Shown: positions 12,298-21,308, numbered from the stretch's first letter. The stretch is 64,000 nt of DNA from Poseidonia sp. (GCA_022426155.1 JAKMEE010000039.1:24516-88515), one strand, 5' to 3'. Translations and numbers: made by a program. The notes: generated by a model not told the origin, from the sequence alone.

Positions 12298-13857
12298 TCA
12301 TTCCTCAGGGATGTAATACAAAGCAACACTTCCGGTACCCAAAGAGATGGGTTGACCGACGATGATGTTCTCTGCAACACCAGTCAGGTAATCTCTCTCG
12401 CCGATAATACCAGCCTTGAGTAAGTGGTTGACGGTCACTTCGAACGCTGCACGAGCAAGGATACTGTGTTTGGTACCTGATACACCGTGTCGGCCAATAG
12501 CACGAACTTCGCCTTCACTGGTCATCACGTCAGCAACCATGAGTAGGTGGCGAACGTCAACTTCCAATCGAGCCCCATCAAGGGTCTTTTGCAGTTCATC
12601 AATGATGGCTTGTCGAGCCGCTTCAATTCCAAGATATTCGAAAATTTCGATGATGTTGTTGGTGTAGGTTCGGGAACGATCAATGTTTTCGAGTTCACTC
12701 ACACGCTGAAGATTGCTTCCAATGGTCGAGAGGTAATATTCTCCGGTCTTGTCGTCAAGTTGTACGTTTGCACGCTCAATTCCAGGAATACCTTTCAAAC
12801 GCATGTCACGGATTTTTTCCTCGAGTTGAAGTAGCATGGTGTAGGACGGTGGGTTTTCCTCAAGTTCCGCAAGGTCAGATTGGTCATGAACTCCGGGGAT
12901 GAGAGTCAAGGTGGAAGGGTTCTTCTCCTTGTCAGCTTGGACGAAGAGGCGTGTAGCACGTTCCAATTTATCCTTCACTTCCATAGCGTTCATGCTCTTT
13001 TGCTTGAGGTTACCTTTGTTGAGCTTCAACACCAGTCGGCGTTGTGCGACGTCAGTTTCCAATGATGCAATGTTCACGGTTGTGGTCACTTCAATAGCAG
13101 CTGCGAGTTTGGTGGCAGCCGTTGGGTCGTTTTGTTGTGCATCCTTCAAACGGATTGTCATGGTTGGTGTCTGTGGCACCTTCCGAGCGTCAACAATCTC
13201 AATGATACGAGGCAAACCTTGGGTCACGTTGACCGTTGCAACACCAGCATAGTGGAACGTACGCATGGTCATCTGAGTTCCCGGTTCACCGATGGATTGA
13301 GCAGTAATAATTCCTGCAGCTTCATAAGGGTCAATACTTGCTCGGTTGAGAGCAACAACAGATTCGTTGATGACTTTCTTTGCCTGAGGCTTGGTCAACT
13401 TCTTCTTTCCACGCTTGTGGCAAGCCACAGTCAAATCGTTGAAGATTCGGTTGGTAAATCGCTTGGAGCCGTTTTCCTCTGCAGCCTTGACGAGGGCCAC
13501 ATAAACAGGGTCATCAGCCAATTCATCAGCAATTGAGAGTACCTTACGCTCAATGTCGTAAGGTTCCATGTCCACCGTGGTTTTGGTAGTTCGGCGTCGA
13601 GCCGTCTTGCGTAGGCGAACACTGGTTACTGGACCGGTGGCCTCACTGTTCTGATCTCGTCCCTTTTGTGTTGCAGCAATGATTGTTGCATGAAGGGTGC
13701 CAGCAGTTTCTGAATCGGTTTCACAAACCTGAGCGATTTGTGCATCTGTCATGACTTTGACATCGTCCCACTTGCGGTCATCAGCAAGCATGTGTGCGAA
13801 ATTCTCTGCGATGCCCAAATCCATGAGCTTCTTCTTGGTTGCACTCTTGACAACCAT
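12298..13857 (-). CDS. rpoA2: DNA-directed RNA polymerase subunit A'' (with ~100-aa N-terminal extension)
   Basis: C-terminal part matches A'' ('[22 protein letters not shown]', '[13 protein letters not shown]', trigger-loop region); 519 aa versus ~390 typical; starts 1 nt after the rpoA' stop. Confidence 0.92.
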
Positions 13858-16800
13858 CAGACTTCACCTCCTTCAGGTGCTTCATCTTCCCAGGCGCCGA
13901 GGTCCTCCTCAGGCATCTCACGCTCGTATGATTCAGTCTCCATGGTAATTCCACCTTCGGTTCCCAATGCAGCATCAACGATCACGTCGATGTTGAATGG
14001 GTCTCCGTGCACACCACGAGACGGATCAATTCCGTCTTCGCCATAGCTGAATTGAATGATTCGGTTTGCGGTATTTCGCACCGATAGCATGTCATCGTCG
14101 TAGACCTTCAAATCGTCCATAGCGTTGATGAGGCGGCGTTGCATGTATCCCGACTTTGCAGTACGGACAGCGGTATCGACCAAGGACTCACGTCCTGAAA
14201 CCGAGAGCATAAAGAACTCCGTTGGCTCAAGTCCACGCTTGAATGATGACGAGATGAACCCTCGCTCGAGAGCACCACGTCCACCACGCTTGAAGTGAGG
14301 TAGAACACGGTCATCATATCCACGCTCGAGACGCTTTCCACGAACCTTCGCTTGTCCAATGGAACCGGCCATCATGGTCAGATTGTCCATCGAACCACGA
14401 GCGCCTGAAATGGCCATGTTGACCGCAGCGTTTGTGGAACCAGACTTGTTGAGTTCGTCCTTTGCAATATCACCAGCATTTTGCTTACCTTGGTCGAGCA
14501 TAATCATGATGTTTTCTTCCATGGTTTCACGAGGTGTACGTCCGGGACGTGCTTCGTATCCCTTGCCGTTCTTTCCGAACTTCTCAAGTTCAGCATTAAC
14601 TTCTGAGCGAGCAAAGGCGTTGGCTGAATCAATTGCATCAACAGCTTCCTTTGACAAATCTTCGTCGTCAATACCTGTTGTGAATCCGAGAGAGGTACAA
14701 GCTGCAATTGACAATCGTGTGAATTCATCCAAGAAGCGGGCACCTTGTTCTGGTCCGTTGGTTTGAACGATGGCGTCAAGGAGACGGCCGTCTTCAGCAC
14801 CAATTGCACGCTTGTCAAGGGTACCAACAACCTTTCCGTTTTTCACAGTAACTTCGTCGTTGGAACGACTTCGGAATCGCAGATGGATGTTGTCTGGGAT
14901 AATCAGTGAAATGATGTCTTGGCCACGGAAGCATTGTTCTCCATGTTCATCCTTGACCATCTCTGGAAGTTCACCGGTGTAATCGATGTTTCCAAGCATT
15001 TCCAATCCGTGACGCTGTCGAATCAATGTTCCTGGGCGTGAAAGAAGGTATGCTCCTGAAATGTGGTCGTGAATACCACCGATCACAGCACCGCCATAGC
15101 GAGGTGTGAGGATGTGTTCTTGAACACGCATCAGAATCTTAGCCTCAGCACGTGCTTCTTCAGATTGAATCACGTGAAGGTTCATTTCGTCACCATCGAA
15201 GTCAGCGTTATACGGTGTACAAACTGCCAAGTTGAAGCGGAAGGTGTGACCCTTCATGACACGAACTTCGTGAACCATCATGGACATTCGGTGGAGGGAT
15301 GGTTGTCGATTGAAGATGACAACATCGCCGTCGATGAGGTGTCGCTCAACCTGCAAACCAGGTTTGGGGTTTCCATAGCGGTCAATCGTGGCGAGGCGGT
15401 CTTCGACATGTGTTCGGTCTCCCCATTCATCTTCGGGACTTCCACAATGCGGGCAGGTCACGAGCAATTCTTTGGGTATGGGTTCAGGATCAGCCTTGTC
15501 CATTTGAGCCAATTCGTGCATCCAGCGATAGTGAAGGATAGCCCGTGGATCATCTTCTGGAAGCATCTTGCCCTTTCCTTCAAGTCCCATGAGGTTGTTG
15601 AGGGTAGCGGCATCGTCCACAGAGTAGGTGATTTCTTCGGTGCTTTGGTCAATGCCAGAAAGCGAAATTTGCTTCTGAATCACAAGACCAGGCAAGAAGT
15701 TTGGTGCAGGAAGCACGCTGTGTAGGTCATGGCGAGTGGTGGTGTCTTCGTTGCATTCAGGGTTGTGGCAGCGGAATCCGGCGTTAATCAGGCGGCTTCG
15801 TGCGTTGATCTTCAAGCGTCGACCGTCACCACGGATGATGTAGTTGACACCAGGGTGAACGTCAGGACCACGAAGGATCATCTGGCGCATTTGTTCTCGG
15901 TTACGAGCAGTCACTCGGATTGGGACCGTCAATTCCTTTGCAATCTTGGTGGGTACACCGACTTCATTCACGCTGAGGTATGGGTCAGGTGAAATCACAG
16001 AACGGGCACAGAAGTTAACACGCTTACCGGAAAGGTTGCTTCGGAAACGACCTTCCTTACCCTTGAGACGCTGAGTTAGGGTCTTGAGAGTTCGGCCAGA
16101 GCGATGACGTGCAGGTGGAATACCTGATGTTTGGTTGTCAAAGTAGGTTGTGATGTGGTACTGGAGCAATTCCCAAAGGTCCTCAACAATGAGTTGAGGT
16201 GCACCGGAGTCACGGTTTTCACGAAGGCGTTGGTTGATTCGCAGAACGTCAACCAGCTTGTGGGTCAAGTCATCTTCGGATCGGTCGCCACTGTCCAAGG
16301 TAATGGATGGTCGAACGGTGATTGGCGGGACAGGTAGCACCTTGAGAACGACCCATTCTGGGCGGTTCTGCTTGTCCATTCCGATAAAAATCAAGTTCTC
16401 TGCAGGGATGGAACTGAGCCATTCACGAACATCGCGAGCGTTGAGTTTGCGCTCGGTGTTGTCGTTCTTTTCCTTGAAGGTGGTCGGCTTGTCAAGAATG
16501 ATCTTGCCTTGAGTAGCACCGCAGTGCATGCACACGGCTCGCTTGGTACCCGAGGTGACCTTTTCCACTTCCTTGATGATCTTGGAGAATTCCGTTGAAC
16601 CGACACCGTGCTTGGTAATGACGTCACGGATTCTGTTGCGGTAGTAATCCTGTTCAGATTGCTCTGGGTTGGAAGGGCTTGTTCCTTCCTCGGTGTGGAG
16701 GAGGATGTTGCTGCAGGTGTTGCAGGTTGCCTTTAGAGCCGTCTTGATGAGATTCACGAAACCGATGTGGATCACAGGTAGTTCAAGCTGAATATGACCG

Positions 16801-17033
16801 AAGTGACCAGGTGATTCGTCGTACTTGCAACCGTCGGTTGGGCAAACGAGTCCAGGGTCAATCACACCCATGTGTGGGTCCATCAGACCCTGCTTGTAAG
16901 CGTGGCCGTCATCCTTGTAGGTGTCTGCCGTCTTCACTTCAACAGCGGACATCTTACGAATTTCACTTGGGTCCATCAGTCCAAATCGAATCTGAGCGAT
17001 TCGCTTGGGGATCATTGTTGTTTTTCGACTCAT
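13857..17033 (-). CDS. rpoA1: DNA-directed RNA polymerase subunit A'
   Basis: 1058 aa; zinc-binding '[20 protein letters not shown]', catalytic '[13 protein letters not shown]' (NADFDGD), clamp/bridge regions; start overlaps the rpoB stop (ATGA). Confidence 0.95.
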
Positions 17034-20644: not shown

Positions 20645-20657
20645 GATGTTCCTCTCC

Positions 20658-21308
20658 TCAGTTCCCCTCTACAATTAGTCGGTATGCAATAGATTGACCC
20701 GCCGATGGGGATGGGCGGACTACCTTGAGTACCCTGTCTGCAATCCATCCAGCGGCCAATGGTTTGTGTTCTGGATCTGCTGCGAGTGTGGCCATGTCGG
20801 CGGATTCTGCGAATTCCTTGATGACTTGGACGACAGGGTCTGAAATGAGAATTTTTGGAAGTAATTCCTTGGCCAGGCGGGGTTCACCAGTTTCTGGGTC
20901 AGGTTGGACCATGTTCCAGCGTTCCAATTCTGCCAACTCGATTTCGAGTTGCGCTTCTTCAGAGATGTTGGGTTCGCCCACCAGCTCTTGGTGGGGGACC
21001 AAAATGTGGTTGAGGGCATTAAAGCGAGAAGTGATCTCGGGACGGTCGAAGTCATCAATGGCCTTCGAGCGAATGGTGATCTTCTTGCTCTTCTTTGCTG
21101 CACGTCGGCGGGAACCTTGTTCAGCGATAATGGCCATGGTGGCAACGAATTCTTCAGCGTCTTTGGAAATTCCAAGTGTAGAAGCGACTTCGTCTGAGGA
21201 CATGTTCTTGATGTCCGTCATGTTTCTGTCTGTGGCAAGTTTGTGGGCGAACGTATCCGATACACCCAGTTCCATCAAACGCTTTTTTGTTGCACTCTTA
21301 ACGACCAT
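20658..21308 (-). CDS. rpoH: RNA polymerase subunit H (Rpb5-like) with ~130-aa N-terminal extension
   Basis: C-terminus 'ILISDPVVQVIKEF…RVLKVVRPSPSAGQSIAYRLIVEGN' matches the RpoH/Rpb5 C-terminal domain and sits immediately upstream of rpoB. The N-terminal 65 aa ('[27 protein letters not shown]…') are paralogous to the rpoA'' N-terminus. Confidence 0.8.
   Translation of the reverse strand: MVVKSATKKRLMELGVSDTFAHKLATDRNMTDIKNMSSDEVASTLGISKDAEEFVATMAIIAEQGSRRRAAKKSKKITIRSKAIDDFDRPEITSRFNALNHILVPHQELVGEPNISEEAQLEIELAELERWNMVQPDPETGEPRLAKELLPKILISDPVVQVIKEFAESADMATLAADPEHKPLAAGWIADRVLKVVRPSPSAGQSIAYRLIVEGN

Follow-up and report, generated by a model that had tools for sequence, protein, structure and literature searches.

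The RNA polymerase (RNAP) operon of the Poseidoniales (Marine Group II), as found on the minus strand of a 64,000-nt stretch of Poseidonia sp. DNA (JAKMEE010000039.1; the whole stretch is referred to below as the window), raises the question of why two of its subunits, H (RpoH or Rpo5) and A'' (RpoA'' or Rpo1C), begin with a common module. Published accounts describe archaeal RpoH as having no N-terminal domain (PMC3906176, PMC2847245, PMC2675907). The initial annotation had read the shared module as two extra RNAP contacts with nucleic acids or factors. Since the same module, here called the head, was also found on many unrelated proteins, the reading shifts to a portable, lineage-specific targeting domain. 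Judged from its sequence distribution, the head is not RNAP-specific, and most likely represents a Poseidoniales-specific portable targeting head that RNAP carries twice.

Both proteins open with MVVKSATKK[R/K]LM[E/D]LG[V/I]..FAH.LA.DR, as had been described, and both open reading frames (ORFs) lie where they had been placed (Table 1). A BLASTP alignment of the two N-termini gave 29/78 identities (37%, E = 1e-13), which establishes significant paralogy. When either N-terminus was searched against the window in six frames (tBLASTn), the two copies were recovered (E = 9e-14) and the next match had an E-value of 0.2; neither tBLASTn nor a profile HMM search found a third copy in the window. The previous estimate of about 50% identity over some 65 residues was slightly generous, as the copies are alignable over this length with an ungapped identity of 42% (residues 1–64), but the identity is concentrated in the first 35–45 residues (63% over residues 1–35, 17% over residues 36–64). 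Across 53 genomes, the first 45 residues of RpoH and RpoA'' are 51–60% identical. The two gene copies use different synonymous codons, even within the invariant first nine codons (GTC GTT versus GTT GTC; ACA AAA AAG versus ACC AAG AAG), which argues for conservation of the head at the protein level. The same differences rule out two other explanations that were considered for the identity of these nine codons, a 5' RNA element common to both genes and a recent gene conversion. The RpoH head carries the variant motif ...KKRLMELGV..AHKLATDRNM.DIK..., referred to here as H-type, and that of RpoA'' is termed A''-type; the conserved core of the head (residues 1–35) has a slightly basic net charge (+1 to +3).

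Both heads lead into a Lys/Arg-rich linker, as had been noted, with a net charge of +7 over residues 65–95 in both proteins of the window. Species means are +5.5 for RpoH (residues 65–92) and +4.7 for RpoA'' (residues 65–100). The RpoH linker is near-invariant in sequence, has a net charge of +5 to +6 across species and contains a conserved [KR][IV]T[IV] motif, and the RpoA'' linker ranges from +3 to +8. A strand-like motif was observed within the linkers (RpoH residues 76–80, ~21069–21083; RpoA'' residues 77–83, ~13609–13629), in the form KITI[RS] in RpoH of all clades (also RKVTIS, RMTIS and RVSIS) and VTSVRLR, TNVRLKR or TIVRRR in A''. Given this recurring motif, the tether may be more than merely flexible.

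A scan of species genomes was used to assess how widely this arrangement is conserved. The best 80 loci came from Poseidoniales or Poseidonia metagenome-assembled genomes (MAGs), except for one mislabelled bin. P0282, named as Candidatus Poseidonia sp., has an RpoH core 100% identical to that of the window. The head was present in 79/79 complete RpoH (216–217 aa) and 53/53 complete RpoA'' (516–530 aa) of these loci, so that the extensions are kept in relatives and are not restricted to one assembly. RpoA'' proteins named as Thalassarchaeaceae (MGIIb; P0174, P0273) are likewise headed, and a divergent RpoH type (P0037, 196 aa; MVVKSSTKKRLIELGV..HAHRLADDANMDAIK) shows the same order of head, basic linker and core. 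Residues 1–11 are invariant in 50 distinct RpoH and 50 distinct RpoA'' from independent assemblies, and Met1, the first start codon past the upstream stop, is because of this invariance taken to be the real start of RpoH. The duplication of the head is thus supported as real, ancient and conserved across the Poseidoniales. The mislabelled bin (L014, NZEQ01000081.1) is an archaeal RNAP operon in a MAG labelled Verrucomicrobiales bacterium, and is probably a binning contaminant. Many public gene models of RpoH begin at Met12, omit codons 1–11 (21276–21308) and give 205 aa, not 216. The possibility that the module exists as a separate small gene in relatives was rejected, as the short homologues proved to be contig-end fragments with adapter-like tails or products of frameshifted long-read assemblies. 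Two long-read 'pilon' contigs (L001, 10001–10700; L093, 10001–11568) have frameshifted rpoH, rpoB and rpoA'' genes, and such copies give rise to spurious short 'module-only' proteins in public protein sets.

Beyond the head and linker, both proteins are recognisable subunits. PF01191 matches RpoH residues 145–212 (E = 4e-8; 33.3 bits, passing the 23.5-bit cut-off), with profile positions 29–73 stretched over this segment. The sequence FNALNHILVPH at residues 96–106 reads as the usual RpoH N-terminus, and the gene lies directly upstream of rpoB, as expected of subunit H. The NCBIfam equivalog model NF007129 reaches only 38 bits over residues 145–214, under its 83-bit cut-off, which explains why the protein is often named 'hypothetical protein' at NCBI; 'RpoH/Rpb5 C-terminal domain-containing protein' is another frequent name. 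The N-terminal extension itself accounts for many pipelines calling RpoH from Met12 or leaving it as a hypothetical protein. No Pfam family, including the Rpb5 jaw (PF03871), matched RpoH residues 1–135 at E ≤ 10. The core was seen to be about 45 aa longer than usual owing to two acidic insertions (approximately residues 111–144 and 165–185), shorter versions of which occur in P0037. The extension had been held responsible for the length of RpoH (216 aa); the module and linker do supply ~93 of the ~135 extra residues, but the core itself carries insertions. In RpoA'', TIGR02389 matches residues 137–514 at equivalog level (426 bits, cut-off 420.65 bits), so that this part is a canonical A'', while residues 1–136 (of which 99–136 are counted with the body) lie outside the model.

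The fold of the head was approached by modelling. An AlphaFold2 (AF2) model of RpoH residues 1–80, built from an 11-sequence alignment, contains five helices (6–14, 18–25, 30–34, 38–45 and 52–72), with a predicted local distance difference test (pLDDT) score of ~88 over residues 11–60; in the linker, pLDDT is only 55–69. A second AF2 model, of the unrelated head-bearing protein P0133, has N-terminal helices at 6–14, 18–24, 30–34, 38–44 and 52–62. The predicted layout in both models is that of a tandem helix-hairpin-helix, or (HhH)2, domain: helix-hairpin-helix, connector helix, helix-hairpin-helix. A Foldseek comparison with PDB structures returned FANCM/FAAP24 at the top (probability 0.97 and 0.95; template modelling score 0.59; root-mean-square deviation 2.7–3.3 Å over 63 columns), with NusA second, followed by the C-terminal half of UvrC, the N-terminal domain of RadA/Rad51, Topo V, and then sterile alpha motif domains, which have the same superfold; endonuclease III was also among the matches. 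Taken together, the head is likely to have an (HhH)2-like fold. It would be a portable, Poseidoniales-specific domain of ~64 aa and five helices, whose conserved core (residues 1–35/45) corresponds to the first helix-hairpin-helix and the connector helix.

Profile comparisons gave a similar picture. A 29-sequence alignment of the module was compared locally (hhalign) with hand-entered (HhH)2 sequences, so that the scores are a lead and not a database result. UvrC gave a probability of 36%; the RadA N-terminal domain 21%, over 58 columns with 29% identity, a pairwise E-value of 0.001 and both hairpins in register; NusA acidic repeat 2 (AR2) 4%, in register over 50 columns with 30% identity; RAD51 2.5%; and ERCC1, RuvA and the C-terminal domain of the bacterial alpha subunit (alpha-CTD) 0.1–0.3%. 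Four unrelated helical proteins, used as controls, scored 0.4–0.8%, and RadA and NusA AR2 score above them. The likeness to alpha-CTD was rejected on this basis (0.1%, no better than controls). The first hairpin motif (L14-G15-V/I16-S/A17...A21) is kept, with G15 and A21 invariant, and reads LGVS in RpoH and LGIA in RpoA''; the second is LGIS in RpoH and is variable among the non-RNAP carriers. The initial annotation had seen two helix-Gly-hydrophobic-Ser/Ala-helix segments in each protein, resembling the tandem HhH motifs of alpha-CTD or the NusA acidic repeats. Both segments hold in RpoH and only the first in RpoA''; the resemblance is partly supported by the five-helix layout, the NusA fold match and the in-register alignments with RadA and NusA AR2, and fails for alpha-CTD.

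The module profile was then used to search 1.84 billion representative proteins, giving 193 matches at E ≤ 1e-3 and 116 at E ≤ 1e-10; those inspected open with the same motif. After RpoH and RpoA'' fragments were removed, clustering of the C-terminal parts divided the remainder into at least 11 multi-member families and many singletons. In the product of one complete gene (P0107, 193 aa; contig L094, 314–895), a charged linker joins the head to the first cyclin repeat of transcription factor B (TFB), the only repeat present; the protein matches NF001658 (E = 5e-14, residues 76–192 on profile positions 106–216). The head occupies the place of the TFB Zn ribbon and B-reader, both of which are missing. 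P0073 (851 aa) contains C2H2 fingers, an H-type head (residues 92–144) and an ABC/OLD-type ATPase, and matches the defence models NsnB (2e-38), AriA, AbiLi and GajA; its head is internal, which shows that an N-terminal position is not the rule throughout. Two further carriers, P0042 and P0127, are rich in Cys. P0098 (1292 aa) and other carrier families had no matches in family-model searches, and in carrier family F7 (P0133) the AF2 model had a mean pLDDT of 69 and a C-terminal domain with no credible PDB fold match. P0099 (186 aa) was observed to have, apparently, two tandem copies of the head.

Carriers conserve residues 1–35/45 only. Residues 1–35 are 48–94% identical within families and 51–83% identical to the host RpoA'' head, while the C-terminal parts show 25–52% identity within most families (range 5–82%). 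The polar residues K4, S5, T7, K8, K9, H22, R28 and K34 are near-invariant across unrelated carriers. The carriers form a continuum of scores, in which A''-type heads predominate and H-type heads are fewer. There is no consistent basic tether among the non-RNAP carriers (mean +0.3), which indicates that the head is a portable unit and that the basic tether is an RNAP-specific addition.

Where enough DNA was available, the contexts of carrier genes all look mobile-element-like: the genes run mostly in one direction and nearly all are without a Pfam match, and the GC content is 41–45%, compared to 48.8% for the window. Each examined contig of this kind has exactly one head-bearing gene. In the 38.9-kb contig L091, genes for Mom, WGR, ERCC4, PCNA, ribonucleotide reductase and ParA-like proteins surround the carrier P0230. 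In the 25.9-kb contig L089 and the syntenic L083, the neighbours of family F7 include a Cas4-like nuclease, a resolvase of Holliday junctions, a DNA methyltransferase, a weak match to primase-polymerases and a complete TFB; the TFB of L089 (13728–14714) is full-length, with Zn ribbon and cyclin repeats, but headless. L082 and L096 are arrays of ORFans, P0416 lies on a 166-kb contig, and one member of the P0098 cluster is from a Tara 0.1–0.22 µm fraction. The contig of P0107 (L094) and L091 come from the same sample.

No capsid, terminase or PolB genes were found on the carrier contigs with Pfam or PHROGs, and PHROGs gave almost no matches to neighbouring genes and no structural genes. Scans of IMG/VR with the module and with family F7 yielded unconfirmed pattern matches only, and tBLASTn searches of INPHARED with the module and a 979-aa L091 protein gave no match. 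For these reasons the contigs are described as virus- or plasmid-like only, and their host is inferred. The TFB, PCNA, ribonucleotide reductase, ERCC4 and resolvase of the carrier contigs had no tBLASTn matches in the host DNA of this analysis, and the link to the Poseidoniales lies mainly in the head itself. The hallmark genes of magroviruses (capsid, terminase and family B DNA polymerase) were not found on L091 or L089. Among the unassembled magrovirus-like contigs of 'group D', Philosof et al. described a gene for 'DNA-dependent RNA polymerase A' (PMC5434244), and this could be a match to the head described here.

What the heads may do on RNAP is suggested by where they sit. Subunits H and A'' associate strongly and make up the lower jaw; in archaeal pre-initiation complexes H can be cross-linked to DNA positions +10 to +20, and its arrangement changes in elongation complexes (PMC2847245). 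Archaeal Rpo5 is without the ~130-residue jaw domain of Rpb5 (PMC2675907), and the groove left by the missing jaw holds, in the Sulfolobales, the small helical subunit Rpo13, the basic tail of which reaches downstream DNA (PMC2675907, PMC3479171, PMC13257274). By analogy, the N-terminus of RpoH would mark the place of the Rpb5 jaw of eukaryotes and of Rpo13 in the Sulfolobales. In RNA polymerase II (Pol II), the region just past the A'/A'' split is said to have been assigned by Cramer et al. in 2001 to the Rpb1 foot and cleft, in a 'shelf' module with Rpb5. It is proposed that RpoH and RpoA'' acquired the domain at their N-termini in the form of two old paralogues, each on a Lys/Arg-rich tether of ~30 aa, and that the heads are suspended from adjacent sites on the lower jaw, near downstream DNA and near each other. 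Contacts with duplex DNA would come from the tethers and from the basic first helix (K4, K8, K9, K/R10), and the heads themselves would be docking sites, for one another or for factors. The tethered heads would in this way supply further contacts next to the channel for downstream DNA and take the part of the Rpb5 jaw or Rpo13 in this lineage, and the non-RNAP carriers would use the same head to reach the same target. This reading, in which duplex-contacting tethers and docking heads form the Poseidoniales counterpart of the Rpb5 jaw or Rpo13, is the preferred one and is held tentatively, at somewhat less than an even chance. Counted in its favour are the paralogy, the conservation, the two AF2 models, the (HhH)2 fold matches, the in-register alignments with RadA and NusA AR2, the tethers, basic on RNAP and not consistently so on the carriers, and the literature on H and A'' in the lower jaw, together with the presence of the head on a TFB-cyclin protein, a defence-type ATPase and ORFans of mobile-element-like contigs.

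Several points weigh against the proposal. The fold assignment comes from predicted models, the hhalign probabilities are low, and the Foldseek E-values were all ≥0.7, none being significant, as expected at 60 residues. Pfam searches returned no family, HhH included, for the N-termini of RpoH and RpoA'' at E ≤ 10, and no shared family and no HhH for 53 carriers at E ≤ 1; a sequence-profile search of the PDB found only a designed repeat protein and a weak viral match, both judged meaningless. There was, in sum, no significant Pfam, PDB-sequence or profile match that would make the head a member of a described HhH family. The second hairpin of the window RpoA'' reads CETDSE and is without a Gly. 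The whole head (residues 1–64) is net acidic on both RNAP subunits (mean −2.6) and in this is closer to the acidic repeats of NusA, which bind protein, than to a DNA clamp, and the constraint on the head in fast-evolving carrier families exceeds that usually seen where only the DNA backbone is bound. The place of the A'' N-terminus with respect to DNA would be the one expected from Pol II and archaeal structures.

Some of these points fit better with the head being purely a protein-protein address tag, the main alternative, considered somewhat unlikely. H-type and A''-type heads would then pair, in the manner of the (HhH)2 domains of XPF-ERCC1 and FANCM-FAAP24, or bind a common host partner, with negligible DNA contact by the head, and the look-alike heads of mobile-element and defence proteins would dock at the same RNAP site, where they could monitor, inhibit or redirect transcription. 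Among the fold matches, the heterodimerising (HhH)2 pair FANCM/FAAP24 ranks first and NusA next; NusA AR2, an (HhH)2 repeat that is acidic and binds protein, gives an in-register alignment, and acidity is also a property of the heads on RNAP. The constraint on residues 1–35 beside diverging C-terminal parts, the mostly A''-type and less often H-type character of the carriers along a continuum of scores, the replacement of the RNAP-recruiting Zn ribbon and B-reader of TFB by the head in P0107, and the single head-bearing gene per mobile-element-like contig all point in the same direction. However, the mildly basic core with its canonical HhH hairpin fits DNA contact, the identifiable carriers (TFB-like, OLD/AriA-like ATPase and Zn-finger proteins) all work on DNA, so that plain DNA targeting would also fit, and the carrier contigs are tied to the Poseidoniales mainly via the head. 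A lineage-specific 'RNAP address', that is, a heterodimeric (HhH)2 pair on the lower jaw that viruses, plasmids and defence systems have copied for docking, is regarded as unlikely; the ribbon-less TFB, the OLD/AriA-like ATPase and dozens of ORFan families would be the candidates for such copies.

A further reading, also quite unlikely, is that of a generic (HhH)2 domain that binds DNA non-specifically and has been shuffled among the DNA-handling proteins of the lineage and its mobile elements, each copy raising local DNA affinity with no pairing, shared docking site or cooperation. HhH domains added to polymerases, as in Topo V HhH fusions, raise DNA affinity and processivity, and the predicted fold, the matches to UvrC, RadA, Topo V and endonuclease III, the basic N-terminal helix and the DNA-handling nature of carriers with recognisable domains are all in keeping with such a role. 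Against it, many polar residues are near-invariant across unrelated carriers, H-type and A''-type variants persist among them, random placement on two touching subunits is improbable, and the heads on RNAP are net acidic. An artefact, be it a wrong start codon, a local assembly duplication or a chimeric contig, has a negligible chance of being the explanation, as the 205-aa gene models and the frameshifted long-read copies are outweighed by the invariant residues 1–11, the position of Met1 as first start after the stop, the synonymous-site differences between the copies and the same architecture in 79 species-genome loci.

The preferred reading, of tethered heads at the lower jaw, can be compared with several known systems. 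The Rpb5 jaw is also an extra domain N-terminal to the assembly domain, forms part of the lower jaw beside downstream DNA and contacts factors (PMC2847245, PMC2675907), and Rpb5 has a total length close to the 216 aa of Poseidoniales RpoH. It differs in having no sequence relation, and in being a ~130-residue domain rather than a small, all-helical, predicted (HhH)2 domain on a basic tether; the Poseidoniales head also occurs on A'' and on non-RNAP proteins. Rpo13 is likewise a lineage-specific small helical element with a Lys-rich tail, located by the N-terminal side of Rpo5 and directed toward downstream DNA (PMC2675907, PMC3479171), but it is a separate helix-turn-helix subunit of Crenarchaeota with a C-terminal basic tail, whereas the Poseidoniales element is fused to RpoH and A'' and is predicted to be (HhH)2; the likeness considered here is positional (PMC2675907).

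Among (HhH)2 proteins, NusA AR1/AR2 are net-acidic modules on a transcription protein and serve in protein docking, but they are bacterial, C-terminal and in tandem within one protein, and with an hhalign probability of just 4% homology is not established. XPF-ERCC1, Mus81-Eme1 and FANCM-FAAP24 have paralogous (HhH)2 domains on two adjacent partner polypeptides; these are C-terminal and belong to nucleases or translocases, the pairing of the RNAP heads is hypothetical, and ERCC1 scored at control level. The bacterial alpha-CTD, too, is a small HhH-type helical domain that a flexible linker joins to an RNAP subunit; each enzyme has two, and they contact DNA and regulators. It is C-terminal, on the alpha subunit and directed to upstream DNA, while the heads are N-terminal on H and A'', so that the resemblance is at most functional. 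The (HhH)2 domain of RadA/Rad51 shares the N-terminal position, gave the longest in-register profile alignment and was a recurrent fold match, but it belongs to another host protein and reached a probability of only 21% against a hand-entered target.

The layout of the operon is given in Table 1. The ATG of rpoA'' shares one base with the stop codon of rpoA'. RpoA' is long, with an insertion of ~140–160 aa at residues ~395–556 that splits Rpb1 domain 2 and has two Cys pairs (CHNPEC ... CPHCG), probably forming a Zn ribbon; a very acidic tail closes the protein, immediately ahead of the basic start of A''. The arrangement of tRNA-Lys and rpoH is apparently also found in L001, where ORFs of the equivalent region give the same peptide. 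Divergent from rpoH is a gene (21628–23109, plus strand) for a 493-aa fusion of a class I S-adenosylmethionine methyltransferase (MTS/PrmA-like, weak) and a biotin/lipoate-protein ligase. It was detected at the same position in 71/80 loci (tBLASTn), with only 42–53% identity in the listed matches, and a role in modifying the Lys-rich N-terminus of the heads is pure speculation. After rpl30e, where many archaea have nusA-rps12-rps7, there is a gene (8453–11902, minus strand) for a protein of 1149 aa, either secreted or membrane-bound, with Ca-binding repeats of thrombospondin type 3, which is also present in L093.

Table 1. Features of the RNAP operon and of its two head-bearing subunits (positions in the window).
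Feature	Position (nt)	Strand	Basis or remarks
tRNA-Lys(UUU) gene	21358–21433	-	50 nt upstream of rpoH
rpoH (RNAP subunit H/Rpo5), complete, 216 aa	20658–21308	-	ORF and PF01191 Rpb5_C
RpoH N-terminal module, residues 1–64	21117–21308	-	BLASTP vs RpoA'', AF2, conservation
RpoH Lys/Arg-rich linker, residues 65–93 (GSRRRAAKKSKKITIRSKAIDDFDRPEIT)	21030–21116	-	charge, AF2 pLDDT drop
RpoH core (Rpb5 C-terminal/assembly domain) with lineage-specific insertions, residues 94–216	20658–21029	-	
rpoB, unsplit, 1204 aa, without module	17030–20644	-	between the two module-bearing genes
rpoA', 1058 aa, without module	13857–17033	-	between the two module-bearing genes
rpoA'' (Rpo1C), 519 aa	12298–13857	-	ORF, PF04998 and TIGR02389 matches
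RpoA'' N-terminal module, residues 1–64	13666–13857	-	BLASTP, tBLASTn, profile search
RpoA'' Lys/Arg-rich linker, residues 65–98	13564–13665	-	net charge
RpoA'' body, residues 99–519	12298–13563	-	profile matches
rpl30e	11954–12274	-	

Full-text literature searches found no prior description of the extension or of the shared domain. Lineage-specific RNAP appendages and HhH-like folds are already known kinds; what is new is that the head occurs on both H and A'' and is shared with proteins of mobile-element-like contigs. Pfam does not detect its sequence family. A whole globally abundant order carries an N-terminal domain on RpoH and a paralogue on the neighbouring A'', and the head would represent an independent, lineage-specific elaboration of the RNAP lower jaw, parallel to the Rpb5 jaw and the crenarchaeal Rpo13. 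The approximate motif VVKSATKK[KR]L..[LM]G...AH.LA.DR offers a handle for finding proteins whose probable site of action is the chromosome or the transcription machinery of an uncultured host, and it may help to tie unassigned marine contigs to the Poseidoniales. If true, an RNAP address would be a route of mimicry by which host transcription is seized or monitored in some of the highly abundant archaea of the ocean.

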